Of a DNA stretch of 64,000 nucleotides, positions 7,045 through 36,481 are shown in pieces (position 1 is the first letter of the stretch; the number at the start of each line of letters is the position of its first letter). The DNA comes from Gammaproteobacteria bacterium RIFOXYD12_FULL_61_37 (GTDB lineage: Bacteria > Pseudomonadota > Gammaproteobacteria > Chromatiales > Chromatiaceae), in the NCBI GenBank assembly GCA_001801995.1, contig MGZB01000011.1:3817-67816 (forward strand), in the 5' to 3' direction. Below the pieces are notes generated by a model. That model made no database searches, was not told the DNA's origin, and saw only the letters and a list, made by a program, of their open reading frames with translations. The translations under genes were made by a program, and so were the position numbers.

Positions 7045-7272
7045 GCTGGGCTATCCCCTCACGGATAATGAATTCCGGTTTCCAAAGCAATGCTTAATAG
7101 GTGCGAGATCCCGGCCGAATCGGCAGAATCCAAGAAGATTCGGGGATATCGGGATTTTCAACGGCAGCCTGAAGGATTGGGGATTTTGGCCAGCAGACAG
7201 GGTAGAGTCAAGCGACCCCATCAAATTCAGTAATTTCCTACAACGTAATTCCTTGCCGCCGTTGTCCATTGT

Positions 7273-31640: not shown

Positions 31641-31748
31641 TTCGGGGGCAAGGCCCAGCCAACCCTTATCGGGGCTGGCGCGGAGTGGGTGGAGGGGGCT
31701 GCGGCAGGGGCCTGGGGACTGGGATTCCCCAGCCCCCATTTGGGGTAA

Positions 31749-32087
31749 TCAATATCCGCCCTTGCGGTTGACATGGGGTAGACCGGCGATACGGTTGCCC
31801 TGCTTGCTGGGGGCCATGGGGAACAGGTTGTAGAGGTCCTTGCTGCTGACCTTCTTGCCCCAGCGGTCGCCCATTGCCTTGTTGATGGCGCGTTCCATGG
31901 GTTGGCTGCCGTTGCAGTCGAAGTACTCTTCGCGAAGGTACTTGATGACATCCCAGTGCGCCTGGGTGAGTTCGATGCTGTCTTCTGCGGCCAGGGCCTT
32001 GGCGACGTCTTCGTTCCAGTCGGCGGTATTGACGAGATTGCCGTTGCCGTCGAGTTCGATGGTATTGCCATTCACTTCAATGGACAT
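31749..32087 (-). CDS. DsrC/TusE-family paralogue lacking both C-terminal-arm cysteines (RspA-like)
   Basis: 112 aa that aligns by eye along its full length with the DsrC at 37658-37990. The C-terminus is KQGNRIAGLPHVNRKGGY, against KQACRYAGLPKPTGCV in DsrC. Confidence 0.85.
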   Translation of the reverse strand: MSIEVNGNTIELDGNGNLVNTADWNEDVAKALAAEDSIELTQAHWDVIKYLREEYFDCNGSQPMERAINKAMGDRWGKKVSSKDLYNLFPMAPSKQGNRIAGLPHVNRKGGY

Positions 32088-32136
32088 TGTCTAGCTCCTT
32101 CGATCAGGGGTGTTGCGAATTAAAACCGGCGAGATT

Positions 32137-32844
32137 TTACCGGGGAGTTTCCATGCCGTCATCCACGCTCTTATTCACCGCGTCGATGTCTTTGTGTGGG
32201 ATAAAGATCCCGCAACCCATCAGCCGGTGATGGCCTATACCCCTTTGTTGCAGCCGGATGGATTCCTCATAGGGGAGATCCGCCAGCATGAGGGAGCGGG
32301 TAAAAAGGGGGCCGTCCGGGGTATAAAGCTCGATGCCCATGCCGCAGAGGGCCTTGCGGATGCGGACGCCGGTTTGCGCCAGTTCCAGCGCCATCTCCTG
32401 GAGAAAGGCCTCTTCGGGCTGCTCGGGGTCGCAGGCGATATGGCGGGCGAAGAGGGTTCCGAGTTTGCTCAGAGGCTTTCTCTGGGACTTGCCGAGGGTC
32501 AGGGGATGCCCGGCGATGTCCAGGGTCGTTCCGGTCAGTTGCTCCGCCTCGGCAAGGCGTGACTGGGGGAGTCTCAGGCTGAGCTTGGCGCGGTGTGAGA
32601 GGTGAAGGATTTCGCCAGGGCTGTGGCGGGGGCGGGTCCAGCCGTTTTGGGAACCGGCCGCGTAGATGAGATGGATCGCCGCCTGGGGTTCTTGGTCCAG
32701 CCAGGGCAAGGCCCGCCTTAGCGCGGTGGAGAGGGCGTAGGCATGGTCCACGGGGATGTGGCGGCATATCAGGCTGAAGCTGAGGTCCATGATGTCGCCG
32801 GGGACGGTTTGCTGCTCACCGCGGCTGTCTTCTTGCCAGAACAT
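32137..32844 (-). CDS. Cas6/Cmx6-like (type I-MYXAN Cas6 family) protein, orphan
   Basis: 235 aa from the ATG at 32844. The N-terminus MDLSFSLICRHIPVDHAYALSTALRRALPWL and the C-terminal glycine-rich segment RGIGHHRLMGCGIFIPHK resemble my recollection of the Cmx6 family. No HMM search was run. Confidence 0.6.
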   Translation of the reverse strand: MFWQEDSRGEQQTVPGDIMDLSFSLICRHIPVDHAYALSTALRRALPWLDQEPQAAIHLIYAAGSQNGWTRPRHSPGEILHLSHRAKLSLRLPQSRLAEAEQLTGTTLDIAGHPLTLGKSQRKPLSKLGTLFARHIACDPEQPEEAFLQEMALELAQTGVRIRKALCGMGIELYTPDGPLFTRSLMLADLPYEESIRLQQRGIGHHRLMGCGIFIPHKDIDAVNKSVDDGMETPR

Positions 32845-32845
32845 C

Positions 32846-33544
32846 TCAATCCTCCGGTAACTGTGACTGGATAAATTCCCGGTCGAACCACCAGTCGTCC
32901 TGTACCAGGACATCAATCACATTGCGCAGCCGGACCAGGAATTTGTCCGGTTCGTTCAGTTCCAGCCGCTCCATCCAGTGATCGAACTCCTGCTGATTGT
33001 TCACCCCGCTATGACGGCGGGCGACCTGGCCCAGGATCTGGCTGGCGAAGAAGCGCAGCTTTTCGTGGAGCCCTGCATCCTTCACCCGGTGATCCACCAG
33101 GAAAAGCGCGGTGACGGCAGCGACGGCGGCACCGTCCGCGTTGTCGGGGGTCTCGTCCACCAAATGGGTCAGCAGGTGGACGCTCAGCTCGGGATCGATA
33201 GGGAAGGTAACGGCAAGCCAGATCCCCTGGCCCAGGGCGGCGAGGGAGGCGGGTTGGCCGCATTTGAACAGGACATCGCAACTGTCGGCGGCCAGTTCCC
33301 AGTCCTGGTGCGCGACGAACTGGTCCAGCGCGGCCCTTCCCAGGGGCCAGGCCTCCTTGCCCCGCTCCAGTCCCATCAGGGTGCGTGCCAGCTCCAGGTT
33401 GTGGGTGGCGACCTGGAGGGGATTGGTTCCGTCAAGGAAGGCCGCTTGATGCTGTAGATCGGCCAGGCGGCCTTCCAGCTCTGCTTGCTCGCGGGCCTTG
33501 AGGGCGGCGGTGGAATCGGCTGCGGTATCGAGGTTATCGCGCAT
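32846..33544 (-). CDS. Hypothetical protein (predicted all-alpha), co-operonic with the Cas6/Cmx6-like gene
   Basis: 232 aa. Its stop lies 1 nt before the next start. No family was recognised. Confidence 0.6.
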   Translation of the reverse strand: MRDNLDTAADSTAALKAREQAELEGRLADLQHQAAFLDGTNPLQVATHNLELARTLMGLERGKEAWPLGRAALDQFVAHQDWELAADSCDVLFKCGQPASLAALGQGIWLAVTFPIDPELSVHLLTHLVDETPDNADGAAVAAVTALFLVDHRVKDAGLHEKLRFFASQILGQVARRHSGVNNQQEFDHWMERLELNEPDKFLVRLRNVIDVLVQDDWWFDREFIQSQLPED

Positions 33545-33552
33545 GGGGTTTC

Positions 33553-33741
33553 CTATACCCGCCCGCTGAAGGCGGCCTCAACAGTATCCTCCCAGTTGTT
33601 GGGGGTGTCGGGGTAGGGCGGTTTCACATCGATCTGGAAAAAACGCTCTCCCCGGCGCGCGTGCTCCTGGATGACCGGCAGCAGTTCCGTAAAGGACTGG
33701 ATCTCTTTATGGGCAATCAATATGTGGCTTAGATAAAGCAT
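33553..33741 (-). CDS. Small hypothetical protein, first gene of the operon
   Basis: 62 aa, ending 8 nt upstream of the next gene. No family was recognised. Coding status is less certain because of its size. Confidence 0.4.
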   Translation of the reverse strand: MLYLSHILIAHKEIQSFTELLPVIQEHARRGERFFQIDVKPPYPDTPNNWEDTVEAAFSGRV

Positions 33742-33748
33742 GTCTGTT

Positions 33749-33828
33749 TTAGGCTTAAGGCTTGAGGTTTAGCAGAGGTAGGGGCGTTGGCTCACTTATT
33801 CAAGCCTAAAGCCTCATCCCTCAAGCCT
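33749..33828. repeat. Imperfect palindrome built from aggctt/aagcct units in the divergent intergenic region
   Basis: aggcttaaggcttgagg (33751-33767) pairs with aagcctaaagcct (33802-33814) and ccctcaagcct (33818-33828). A related unit ttagaggcttgaggctttag lies at 57106-57125. Confidence 0.6.
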
Positions 33829-34054
33829 CACCAGTCTGTGGCTATCCCGAATGGGATAGGCGGGGTAGGGAGTATCCCCCTTTGGTGGAATAGGACGGGG
33901 GTGGCCACTTGACTATATTGCCGGACCTAAATGGAGGGGCGTTTTTGGCTAGCGAACGCCGCGCGCGGTGGCGATCCTCCGATCGGTTATGTGAGACAGA
34001 CCGGCCCAGCCGGCGATTCACGCACAGTCAATATTAAGTCAGGAGAAAAGCGAG

Positions 34055-35302
34055 ATGGCTTTTGATAAGCACAATACTCCGATGCTTGATCAGCTCGAAA
34101 CCGGCCCCTGGCCGAGTTTCATCAGCGGCATCAAGCGTATGCGTGACGACCACCCCAGCGAAACCATCAACAAAACAATCAACGACCTGCTGGGTCAGCT
34201 CGAACACTCTTACGAAACCCGCAAAGGCTATTGGAAGGGCGGCACGGTATCCGTCTACGGCTACGGCGGCGGCATCATTCCCCGCTTCTCCGAGGTCGGG
34301 AAGTCCTTCCCTGAATCCAAGGAATTCCACACTGTCCGCGTTCAGCCGCCGGCGGGCAACCACTACACCACCGCCATGCTGCGTCAGTTGGGTGATAGCT
34401 GGGAGAAGTACGGCTCGGGTCTGGTGACCTTCCACGGTCAGACCGGCAACATCATGTTCATCGGCACCGATACCGTCCGCACCCAGGACTTCTTCGACGA
34501 AATCAACGATTACGGCTGGGATCTCGGCGGCGCCGGCCCCTGTGTGCGTACCGCCATGTCGTGCATCGGCGCGGCGCGTTGCGAAATGTCCTGCCTCAAC
34601 GAGCAGAAGGCCCATCGCCTGCTGGTGAACAACTTCGTTGACGATGTGCATCGCCCGGCACTGCCTTACAAGTTCAAGTTCAAGGTCTCCGGCTGCGGCA
34701 ACGACTGCCAGAACGCCATCGAGCGCGCCGACTTCGCCATGCTCGGCACCTGGCGCGACAACATGAAGGTGGACCAGGAAGAGGTCAAGGCCTATGTGGC
34801 CAAGAAGGGCCGCAAGTACATCACCGACAATGTCATTACCCGTTGTCCGACCAGCGCCCTCTCCCTGAATGACGACGACACCCTGAACGTCAACAACCGC
34901 GATTGCGTCCGCTGCATGCACTGCCTCAATGTCATGCCCAAGGCCCTGCATCCCGGCGACGACAAGGGCGCCACCATCTGCATCGGCGGCAAGCGCACCC
35001 TGAAGATCGGCGACCTGATGGGTACCGTGGTCATCCCCTTCAAGAAGCTGGAAACGGACGAAGACTGGGAGTCCCTGGTCGAGCTGGCCGAAACCATCAT
35101 CGACTTCTGGGCCGAAAACGCCCTGGAGCACGAGCGTTGCGGCGAGATGATCGAGCGTATCGGCCTGGTTAACTTCCTGGAAGGCATCGGCATCGACCCC
35201 GATCCCAACATGATCAGCGAGCCCCGTCAGAGTTCCTACGTCCGCATGGACGATTGGGACGAGGCCGCCGAAGCCTATTTCGCCCGCAAGGCCGAGGCCT
35301 GA
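34055..35302 (+). CDS. dsrA: Reverse dissimilatory sulfite reductase alpha subunit
   Basis: 415 aa. MAFDKHNTPMLDQLETGPWPSFISGIK is a typical DsrA N-terminus. Also has the siroheme/[4Fe-4S] Cys cluster MSCIGAARCEMSC and the ferredoxin insert CVRCMHCLNVMP. Confidence 0.96.
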   Translation: MAFDKHNTPMLDQLETGPWPSFISGIKRMRDDHPSETINKTINDLLGQLEHSYETRKGYWKGGTVSVYGYGGGIIPRFSEVGKSFPESKEFHTVRVQPPAGNHYTTAMLRQLGDSWEKYGSGLVTFHGQTGNIMFIGTDTVRTQDFFDEINDYGWDLGGAGPCVRTAMSCIGAARCEMSCLNEQKAHRLLVNNFVDDVHRPALPYKFKFKVSGCGNDCQNAIERADFAMLGTWRDNMKVDQEEVKAYVAKKGRKYITDNVITRCPTSALSLNDDDTLNVNNRDCVRCMHCLNVMPKALHPGDDKGATICIGGKRTLKIGDLMGTVVIPFKKLETDEDWESLVELAETIIDFWAENALEHERCGEMIERIGLVNFLEGIGIDPDPNMISEPRQSSYVRMDDWDEAAEAYFARKAEA

Positions 35303-35407
35303 TTCCGGCGAAAACCGACAGATCGGCCGGGGCGACGCTCCGGCTGGGTGGGGCTTGCAATTTAATGCCCCTTATGGAATTAATGTTTTCTCTCTTTGGA
35401 GGACAAG

Positions 35408-36481
35408 ATGGCCAAAGAAATGCGTGAGCCGATTGAAACCGGATGTCCGGACGGCTTCCAATACATGCATCCCGTGATGCGCCGCAACTATGGGATGTGG
35501 AAGTTTCATGAGCATCCCCGTCCCGGCGTGCTGAAGCACGTCGCCTACGGCGGCGATGAATGCTGGACCGTGCGCGCCGGCACCCAGCGCATCCTCGACC
35601 TGTTCACCCTGCGCAAGCTGTGCGACATCGGTGACCAGCATGGCGACGGTTACGTTCACTTCACCATTCGATCCAACATCGAATTCATCGTGGACAACGG
35701 CGCCAAGGTCGATGGTCTGATCAAGGCACTGGAAGAGGCCGGCTTTATCGTCGGCGGCACCCAGAACTCCGTCACCATGATCTCCCACACCCAGGGCTGG
35801 CTGCACTGCGACATCCCCGGCACCGACGCCTCCGGCGTGGTGAAGTCCATGATGGACGAGCTGATCGACGAGTTCCGTAGCGCCAACATGCCGAACCGCG
35901 TTCATATCACCACCTCCTGCTGCCAGATCAACTGCGGCGGCCAGGGCGATATCGCCATCAACGTGCAGCACACCAAGCCGCCCAGAATCAATCATGATCT
36001 GGTCGCCGGTGTCTGCGAACGCCCCTCTGTCGTAGCGCGCTGCCCGGTCGCGGCCATCCGCCCCGCCATGGTCAACGGCAAGCCCTCCCTGGAAGTGGAT
36101 GAAAAGAAGTGCATCTGCTGCGGTGCCTGCTTCCCGCCCTGTCCTCCCATGCAGATCAACGACCCGATCCACACCAAGCTGTCCATCTGGGTCGGCGGCA
36201 ACCACTCCAACGCCCGCGGCAAGCCCACCTTCCAGAAGCTGGTTGCCTCCGGCATTCCCAACAACCCGCCCCGTTGGCCCGAGGCCACCGCCATCGTCAA
36301 GCGCATCCTCAAGGCTTACAAGGAAGGCGCGCGCGATTGGGAACGTGTCGGTGAGTGGGTGGAACGCATCGGCTGGTCCCGCTTCTTCGAAGAAGTGGAG
36401 CTGCCGTTCACGAAGTACCATATCGATAACTGGCGCGGTGCTCGCAAGAGTCTCAACGCCTCTGGCCACGTTCGCTTCTAA
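35408..36481 (+). CDS. dsrB: Reverse dissimilatory sulfite reductase beta subunit
   Basis: 357 aa from the ATG at 35408, which follows GGAGGA. Contains TSCCQINCGGQGD and KKCICCGACFPPCP. Confidence 0.96.
   Translation: MAKEMREPIETGCPDGFQYMHPVMRRNYGMWKFHEHPRPGVLKHVAYGGDECWTVRAGTQRILDLFTLRKLCDIGDQHGDGYVHFTIRSNIEFIVDNGAKVDGLIKALEEAGFIVGGTQNSVTMISHTQGWLHCDIPGTDASGVVKSMMDELIDEFRSANMPNRVHITTSCCQINCGGQGDIAINVQHTKPPRINHDLVAGVCERPSVVARCPVAAIRPAMVNGKPSLEVDEKKCICCGACFPPCPPMQINDPIHTKLSIWVGGNHSNARGKPTFQKLVASGIPNNPPRWPEATAIVKRILKAYKEGARDWERVGEWVERIGWSRFFEEVELPFTKYHIDNWRGARKSLNASGHVRF

Follow-up and report, generated by a model that had tools for sequence, protein, structure and literature searches.

Sulfur-oxidising bacteria carry, beside the genes of the oxidative dissimilatory sulfite reductase (Dsr) pathway, a conserved operon that encodes a Cas6-family protein and is not part of any CRISPR system, and the evidence firmly shows this to be a widely conserved accessory operon of oxidative Dsr. 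In the window analysed here, a 64,000-nucleotide (nt) stretch of contig MGZB01000011.1 from Gammaproteobacteria bacterium RIFOXYD12_FULL_61_37, the operon comprises four genes, named P1 to P4, of which P3 encodes the Cas6-like protein and P4 a paralogue of DsrC. The oxidative Dsr pathway is the central route of stored-sulfur oxidation in purple sulfur bacteria, Beggiatoa-type bacteria and many symbionts, and its regulation and accessory factors are only partly known. The general form of the operon is [TauD-like]-P1-[P2]-Cas6-like-[RKGGY DsrC paralogue], divergent from dsrAB, with P1 and the Cas6-like gene as the constant core of the module and P2 as an optional member. The finding amounts to the exaptation of a Cas6 into a gene cluster of energy metabolism.

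Relatives of P3 occur in at least 584 GTDB species genomes (one genome per species was scanned), and of the best 80 genome relatives almost all carry the label of a gammaproteobacterial sulfur oxidiser, including Allochromatium, Thiocapsa, Lamprocystis, Thiorhodococcus, Chromatium, Sedimenticola, Thiothrix, Thiomargarita, Parabeggiatoa and Acidiferrobacterales. An exhaustive HMMER search for the P3 family gave 910 clusters at 50% identity with E<=1e-3, and 165 with E<=1e-30. Gene linkage was assessed in a first sample of 80 genome loci and in a second, independent sample of 80 metagenome loci seeded with members 35-39% identical to P3; the denominators given here are the loci with enough flanking DNA to judge. 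P1 lies directly upstream of P3 on the same strand in 75 of 80 genome and 64 of 67 metagenome loci, a P4-type DsrC paralogue is present in 67 of 77 and 49 of 59, and dsrA is found divergent upstream in 65 of 70 and 28 of 31, respectively. P2 is present in 57/77 genome and 18/55 metagenome loci. Because the arrangement recurs in most of the 160 sampled loci, we regard the operon as a conserved part of the sulfur-oxidation pathway. An earlier sequence-only reading of the window had linked the four genes to each other and to dsr; in related genomes this linkage proved to be strongly conserved, and since the Cas6 match and the non-CRISPR status hold as well, that description stands at the points where it could have fallen.

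The wider sample also extends that four-gene picture, by a five-gene form and by the optional status of P2. In most relatives P1 is immediately preceded by a gene for a 298-residue TauD/TfdA-family dioxygenase (PF02668, E 3e-20), as in 50/80 genome and 30/31 metagenome loci (for example L026:8157-9053, plus strand). The ancestral operon usually begins with this gene, and the genome of the window is without it and has P2. The encoded protein is of the Fe(II)/2-oxoglutarate type and is distantly similar to gamma-butyrobetaine/TmpA-type enzymes, and in L026 its HTD motif and distal His-Arg are visible and look intact. The closest NCBIfam models score far below cutoff, and therefore no substrate can be inferred. 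No TauD-family gene is present in the whole window, in Allochromatium or in the Beggiatoaceae. As a separate observation, an enzyme that requires oxygen is here encoded in the operon of sulfur oxidisers that are mostly anaerobic. In Beggiatoaceae/Thiotrichaceae (L010, L011, L014, L021 and L058) the P1-Cas6-like pair occurs with no P2, P4 or dsrAB nearby, and is divergent from genes for a conserved protein of ~290 residues with a CxxCxxCC motif and for a GltP/DctA-like symporter.

The assignment of P3, which the sequence-only reading had made on resemblance, was confirmed by profile searches and by predicted structure. P3 matches Pfam PF09559 Cas6 (E 2e-61, 207.7 bits; cutoff 26.7 bits) and NCBIfam TIGR02807 cas6_cmx6 (117.8 bits; cutoff 98.85 bits), and the nearest solved structure by sequence is 8fcj_B, the Cas6 of a type I-B CRISPR-associated transposon (E 1e-22). 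When its AlphaFold2 model (pLDDT 83, pTM 0.80) was compared with solved structures by Foldseek, the best match was type I-B Cas6 (8fcu_B/8fcj_B, E 4e-15, TM 0.70-0.78), and the remaining top matches were other Cas6 and Cse3 structures. By hidden Markov model (HMM) and predicted fold, P3 is a bona fide member of the Cas6/Cmx6 family and a descendant of type I-MYXAN/I-B Cas6. It has a double ferredoxin-like (RAMP) fold, and its glycine-rich loop near the C-terminus, GIGxxRxxGCGIFIP, is invariant in homologues. The N-terminus 'MDLSF...' quoted for this protein in the sequence-only reading is residue 20 of the 235-residue open reading frame and not its start; the ATG start is backed by the N-terminal sequence MFWQE(D/E), MFWQED in the window, which is kept across homologues.

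To the extent that catalysis can be read from conserved residues, the active-site region has been retained. In an alignment of seven dsr-type proteins with five plasmid-borne Cmx6 proteins (four CRISPR-linked and one from a non-CRISPR Gloeobacter locus), Asp33-His34, Arg91 and Arg134 are invariant in both groups, as are G202, G204, G210, G212, F214 and P216 of the glycine-rich loop, with R207 and C211 nearly so. The catalytic His of Cas6 enzymes sits at the N-terminus of helix 1, and in the P3 model His34 precedes the helix of residues 35-45 in the same position; it is presumed to be the catalytic residue. Other features are specific to the dsr type: a 17-residue acidic N-terminal tail beginning MFWQE, a 10-residue insertion with an invariant N-G-W-x-R-P that is modelled with low confidence, a TRSLM motif and a C-terminal PHKGI extension. 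Family members down to 35% identity retain these subfamily hallmarks.

The sequence-only reading had found no CRISPR array or other cas gene in the 64 kb, and this was borne out: TRF and a k-mer scan detected no array in the window, PADLOC on 54 window open reading frames matched, among Cas families, Cas6 models alone, and tblastn searches for Cas3, Cas8, Cas7, Cas5, Cas4/Cas1 and Cas2 gave no match in the window and 164 related loci (2.0 Mb). The queries for the tblastn searches came from genuine Cmx6 loci on cyanobacterial plasmids, which carry cas6-cas3-cas8/cmx8-cas7-cas5(-cas4/cas1-cas2) operons and an array of 36-nt repeats. A CRISPR-like array lies near one of 84 related loci scanned (L010, at a contig end and ~3 kb away). 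NCBI and JGI annotate P3-type proteins as type I-MYXAN Cas6/Cmx6, and this routine 'type I-MYXAN CRISPR-associated' misannotation inflates cas gene counts in these genomes.

The fourth gene encodes a protein that matches the DsrC family over the full domain (PF04358, E 6e-33; TIGR03342, 100.4 bits, cutoff 53.5). Two conserved cysteines in the C-terminal arm, within the motif AGLPKPTGC-, define sulfur-carrying DsrC, and a class lacking both C-terminal cysteines has been named within the DsrC/TusE/RspA family (PMC8477390). P4 ends in AGLPHVNRKGGY, where its DsrC counterpart has AGLPKPTGC-, and is without both redox cysteines. It scores 83.5 bits against the TusE equivalog NF008562 (cutoff 191) and the C-terminal Cys is missing. 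The terminus (K/R)IAGLPxxxRKGGY is present in 62 of 64 orthologues, and in all 64 the last 15 residues are free of Cys. Judged from these sequences, P4 belongs to the cysteine-less 'RspA' branch, as a sharply defined subgroup within it. The sequence-only reading was correct in assigning the DsrC/TusE fold and the loss of the redox cysteines, but its term 'cysteine-less' applies to the C-terminal arm only because an internal cysteine, C58, is present. No description of the RKGGY terminus, or of its place downstream of a Cas6-like gene, was found in the literature searched.

P1 and P2 had matched nothing recognised in the sequence-only reading, and neither has a Pfam or NCBIfam family. P1 has 282 homologues of ~62-63 residues with 80% mean column identity; a PDB search likewise gave no relative, the nearest being a non-significant GroEL segment. 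NCBI and UniRef name several 62-63-residue P1 homologues (the family includes, for example, P0251, P0283, P0315 and P0351) 'sulfur relay protein DsrC', which looks like a propagated misannotation since the profiles show no relation to DsrC: hhalign gave a probability of 0.1% for P1 as a DsrC fragment and 0.9% for P1 as a Cas6 fragment, and both possibilities were rejected. P2 has 3169 homologues, and among the 120 matches listed none has a Pfam domain or a name beyond 'hypothetical protein'. Its AlphaFold2 model (pLDDT 93) is an all-alpha solenoid of 11 helices with weak TPR-like matches in Foldseek (best E 0.024, TM 0.44). All of the partner proteins of P3 are acidic.

The layout of the operon and its surroundings is given in Table 1. 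The lengths of the four minus-strand reading frames, the gaps of 8, 1 and 49 nt between P1-P2, P2-P3 and P3-P4, and the 313-bp spacer between P1 and the dsrA ATG were all reproduced as first described, with a single nt between the P2 stop and the P3 start. A purine-rich ribosome-binding site had been claimed before each gene; it was found for P2 (AGGA), P3 (GGAGGA) and P4 (AAGGAG), but P1 has no clear one. The adjoining cluster has the oxidative (reverse) Dsr layout of dsrAB followed by dsrEFH, dsrC and dsrMK(L)JOP, and Pfam matches on the identical contig L001 include two NIR_SIR, two DsrE, DsrH, DsrC, Nitrate_red_gam and Fe-S proteins. This set of four genes adjoins dsrABEFHCMK... on several metagenome contigs and in a Gammaproteobacteria metagenome-assembled genome from the Rifle aquifer (GCA_001801965.1). 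Past P4, a GC-rich inverted repeat is a possible terminator of the operon, common with the convergent murJ; the assignment is tentative because a T-run is missing.

Table 1. Positions of the operon genes, flanking dsr genes and candidate control elements in the window
Feature	Positions	Strand	Description
P1	33553-33741	-	62-residue acidic protein; first operon gene here; from the list of open reading frames
P2	32846-33544	-	232-residue acidic, all-alpha, TPR-like protein; from the list of open reading frames
P3	32137-32844	-	235 residues from ATG; Cas6/Cmx6-family RAMP protein
P4	31749-32087	-	112-residue DsrC/TusE-family paralogue, RspA-like
Possible terminator	31707-31737	-	GC-rich inverted repeat directly past the P4 stop; 12-nt arms, 92% complementarity
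P1-leader hairpin	33745-33829	-	long imperfect hairpin of GGCTTGA/TCAAGCC heptamer repeats; from repeat search, TRF
pal2	33842-33859		perfect palindrome CTATCCC-GAAT-GGGATAG; putative distal operator, ~-76
pal1	33872-33894		degenerate palindrome TATCCCCC-TTTGG-TGGAATAG (plus strand); putative proximal operator, ~-44
TATATT	33914-33919	+	-10-like hexamer toward dsrA, ~135 nt before the dsrA ATG
dsrA	34055-35302	+	divergent from the operon; start of the oxidative dsrABEFHCMKLJOP cluster
dsrA-dsrB spacer	35303-35395		GC-rich hairpin
dsrB	35396-36481	+	second gene of the oxidative dsrABEFHCMKLJOP cluster

The spacer between the operon and dsrA has a conserved architecture. Toward dsrA, pal2 (CTATCCC-N4-GGGATAG) is followed after ~12 nt by pal1, which shares its half-site type, and after a further ~20 nt by a TAnAnT box, in a register between the -10-like box and pal2 that is fixed in 59 aligned sequences. 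In this alignment columns 7 and 11 of the box are invariant and column 9 is conserved in >=90%, giving TAnAnT on the dsrA strand. The pal2 motif occurs at <=3 mismatches in 61 of 69 loci, and the same architecture was found again in 26 of 35 dsrA-bearing metagenome loci. The palindrome block keeps a distance of mostly 190-250 nt to the dsrA ATG, and its distance to the operon start is variable (118-719 nt). Near-exact copies of pal2 are concentrated in the dsrA-operon intergenic region (50 of 55 in 1.32 Mb searched), and the motif was found in none of eight loci where the operon has no adjacent dsrA. A second near-match to pal2 in the window, at 7051-7068 (CTATCCCCTCACGGATAA, 2 mismatches), is far from dsrA and probably arose by chance.

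Expression data are available for Allochromatium vinosum, in which dsrA is Alvin_1251 (PMC3368242). The operon orthologues upstream of it are Alvin_1248-1250, of which Alvin_1249 and Alvin_1250 are annotated as hypothetical; Allochromatium has the palindromes, no adjacent P4 and no TauD-family gene. With pyrite relative to sulfide, RNA-seq ratios for Alvin_1248, Alvin_1249 and Alvin_1250 were 1.12, 0.97 and 0.90, none significant, and the ratio for dsrA was 0.038 (PMC11267869 Table S2). With elemental sulfur relative to sulfide, the three genes rose 12.5-, 6.3- and 17.7-fold (P<0.01), and the ratio was 0.24 for dsrA and 0.09-0.25 for dsrA through dsrP (PMC11267869 Table S2); these elemental-sulfur values were recomputed in PMC11267869 from the microarrays of Weissgerber et al. 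2013, are noisy and are to be read cautiously. The A. vinosum operon is expressed, and is not simply co-regulated with dsr.

For the role of the operon we tentatively favour an RNA-directed function of P3 that tunes Dsr expression post-transcriptionally. Together with P1 and, if present, P2, P3 would still recognise, and perhaps cut, a single, specific RNA stem-loop of a sulfur-oxidation transcript, and Dsr expression would be adjusted after transcription through this action. The DsrC paralogue, whose RKGGY arm is unreactive, would mimic DsrC and could report the state of the sulfur relay or bind the palindromes. The basis for this reading is that the residues which define RNA binding and cleavage in Cas6 are invariant over deep divergence. 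Also in its favour are the Cas6 family match and fold of P3, the 16 conserved basic columns of dsr-type proteins, the conserved linkage to dsr, the lack of CRISPR neighbours and the A. vinosum data, in which the operon is expressed and changes independently of dsr. That the genes are so tightly spaced suggests translational coupling. Post-transcriptional control of dsr was reportedly proposed for DsrR by Grimm et al. in 2010. A more specific form of the proposal, in which a Cas6 captured from a type I CRISPR system was fixed as a regulator of energy metabolism and, with its 62-residue partner, processes or binds a sulfur-oxidation transcript, is doubtful. The RNA role is ranked ahead of protein-level modulation, transcription control and a dioxygenase pathway, in that order, and these readings are not fully exclusive.

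Several results weigh against an RNA-directed role, and the first group concerns the target. An Rfam scan of the whole window gave no match. RNAalifold found no consensus structure in the 59 sequences of the conserved intergenic block, pairing within the palindromes (73.8%) matched that in shuffled alignments (73.2%; 113/500 shuffles as high), and the same held for the covariation score (0.138 vs 0.136; 205/500 as high). Uncompensated changes dominate the palindrome mismatches, with 24 C·A vs 9 G·U and no clear strand preference, and the palindromes track dsrA and not the operon. In the dsrA-dsrB spacer and its equivalents, most loci have a strong GC-rich hairpin with a stem of 8-13 bp, which differs in sequence by lineage and is missing in Allochromatium and several others. 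A second group concerns the proteins. The isoelectric point (pI) of P3 is 6.4 and that of dsr-type proteins 5.7-8.3, mostly ~6, vs 9.3-9.6 for plasmid-borne Cmx6, and the net charge has shifted from +7 to -3.4. Of 11 basic columns conserved in CRISPR-type Cmx6, dsr-type proteins lose six, partly keep a seventh and keep four. The acidic partners are unlike those of a ribonucleoprotein, and a near-constant dioxygenase partner (30/31) is ill-suited to a simple RNA-binding module. Finally, DsrD, which is encoded in a dsr cluster and has a nucleic-acid-binding (winged-helix) fold, was found to act on DsrAB as an allosteric activator (PMC8794893); by analogy, fold may mislead on function in the Dsr pathway. 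The interpretation in the sequence-only reading is accordingly upheld in part, in that the Cas6 family, the non-CRISPR status and the dsr linkage stand, whereas no conserved hairpin target was found for the RNA role.

The charge shift is accompanied by new conservation, as dsr-type proteins have gained 12 conserved basic columns and have 16 in all; the surface was rebuilt and not merely neutralised. As to the candidate targets, pal1 and pal2 were rejected as Cas6 RNA hairpins given the lack of structure and covariation and the tie of the motif to an adjacent dsrA. On the same grounds, together with their confinement to dsrA upstream regions, they look like DNA operators at ~-44 and ~-76 of an inferred dsrA promoter, and offer a concrete handle on that promoter. 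The dsrA-dsrB hairpin was set aside as a P3 target since its sequence is unconserved and Allochromatium, among others, has no such hairpin; it may act in mRNA stability or attenuation. The 5' leaders of dsrA diverge too far for a reliable alignment. The hairpin in the P1 leader (-33.8 kcal/mol, z -3.0) ends ~9 nt before the P1 ATG. It is regarded as lineage-specific because its arms are common to the close relatives L087 and L089 but not L090, and its copy number varies among the three closest relatives; being shared with close relatives alone, it was rejected as a general P3 target. The repeats might be what is left of the lost TauD-like gene region, or might serve to control translation.

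A serious rival, which we consider somewhat unlikely, is that the operon encodes a protein-level accessory or modulator of Dsr and that no RNA is involved. The RAMP fold would then be a protein- or anion-binding scaffold, P1, P2 and P3 would form a complex, and the RKGGY arm of P4 would dock into DsrAB, DsrEFH or DsrMK as a non-reactive mimic, so that the enzyme is modulated or protected in the way that DsrD activates DsrAB in sulfate reducers (PMC8794893). The acidic to neutral character of the Cas6-like family and its uniformly acidic partners, the six lost basic columns, the TPR-like scaffold fold of P2, the arm motif in 62/64 P4 orthologues and the failure of Rfam, RNAalifold and covariation analysis to reveal an RNA target are all consistent with this, as is the DsrD precedent itself. 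Such a role would not account for the Asp-His dyad and glycine-rich loop, hallmarks of RNA cleavage and binding that are invariant down to ~35% identity, nor for the Beggiatoaceae, in which P1 and P3 are paired at a distance from dsr and P4 is missing.

Control of transcription, in which a product of the operon binds pal1/pal2 and so serves as activator or repressor of dsrA and the divergent operon, appears improbable. The DsrC paralogue would be the likeliest binder, alone or with P3, and the Cas6-like protein would be a co-factor and not an RNA enzyme. DsrC is said to have been found by Grimm et al. in 2010 to bind dsr promoter DNA. Divergent placement is typical of regulators, the palindromes lie at ~-44/-76 of a -10-like box in 61/69 and 26/35 loci and are conserved in sequence without covariation and specific to dsrA upstream regions, and in A. 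vinosum the operon and dsr change oppositely between elemental sulfur and sulfide. Against this, Allochromatium has the palindromes yet no adjacent P4, no operon protein matches a DNA-binding Pfam family, and the binder could be an unlinked regulator.

Less probable still is an enzymatic or oxygen-responsive pathway centred on the dioxygenase, which would hydroxylate a small molecule or a small protein (P1 or the P4 arm), with the Cas6-like protein as a substrate-binding or carrier subunit and the genome of the window as a degenerate version without the enzyme. The TauD-family gene immediately precedes P1 in 50/80 genome and 30/31 metagenome loci, and HTD and distal His-Arg residues are visible in L026, both of which fit this proposal. 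However, the gene is absent from the window, Allochromatium and Beggiatoaceae while the other genes stay, and the NCBIfam scores far below cutoff permit no inference of a substrate. That P3 is a displaced or orphaned cas6 serving a CRISPR-Cas system elsewhere in the genome, as its type I-MYXAN Cas6/Cmx6 annotation by NCBI and JGI and its score above the TIGR02807 cutoff would suggest, is effectively excluded by the synteny with P1, P4 and dsrAB kept in most of the 160 sampled loci from diverse lineages, by the missing cas neighbours in 2.0 Mb, and by the subfamily-specific insertions and the mere 21-29% identity to CRISPR-linked Cmx6.

Two further observations concern defence-related genes. 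A Cas6/Cmx6 (TIGR02807, 160.8 bits) encoded outside any cas operon on the Gloeobacter morelensis plasmid pGMOR1 (L092:8974-9765) has PAPS-reductase-family genes, a cupin gene and DNA methyltransferase genes as neighbours, and may be a second, independent non-CRISPR use of the family in a defence-island-like context. In the window, PADLOC also matched two open reading frames to mad3 (E 1e-49) and mad8 of the MADS defence system and others to PDC-S03 and AriA/PtuA-type ATPases, matches that may be generic ATPase/methylase.

In the full texts searched, no Cas6 linked to dsr or to metabolism in any other way is described, although the subscription literature may hold an earlier mention, and the operon genes were found only in supplementary expression tables. 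The operon provides a set of conserved, expressed and genetically tractable unexplored genes, located beside dsrA in the model organism A. vinosum. P3 also represents a branch of Cas6 that is both large and old (165 clusters at 50% identity, at least 584 species) and that left defence altogether and kept its catalytic-site residues. If the RNA-directed reading of P3 is true, P3 would be the first Cas6 to serve a metabolic pathway in a dedicated role outside defence; dsr control would gain a missing post-transcriptional layer, and Dsr levels would be set in this way on switching between sulfide and stored or external sulfur.

The operon can be compared with several known systems. The control region resembles those of LysR-type regulators in its divergent operon and in a strong distal palindrome with a weaker proximal one overlapping the -35 region, but the operon encodes no recognised DNA-binding protein (Pfam) and the likeness is architectural only. 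DsrD of sulfate reducers is likewise a small protein of nucleic-acid-binding fold in a dsr cluster and was long suspected to be a regulator; it is unrelated to the operon proteins in sequence and fold. P4 is like RspA-type DsrC homologues in its family match and in missing both C-terminal cysteines, whereas the invariant RKGGY terminus and the fixed place downstream of the Cas6-like gene are its subgroup's own. The closest relationship is with Cas6/Cmx6 itself (TIGR02807, PF09559; solved structure 8fcj_B), which P3 matches in fold, HMM score, the Asp-His pair and two Arg residues, and P3 shares the loop G-x-G...G-C-G-x-F-x-P with CRISPR-linked Cmx6. The latter are only 21-29% identical to P3, lack its acidic N-terminal tail, NGW-x-RP insertion and PHK C-terminus, and have a pI of ~9.5 vs ~6 for the P3 type. 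Whereas CRISPR Cmx6 adjoins an array and cas genes, P3 is fixed beside dsrAB with P1 and a DsrC paralogue.

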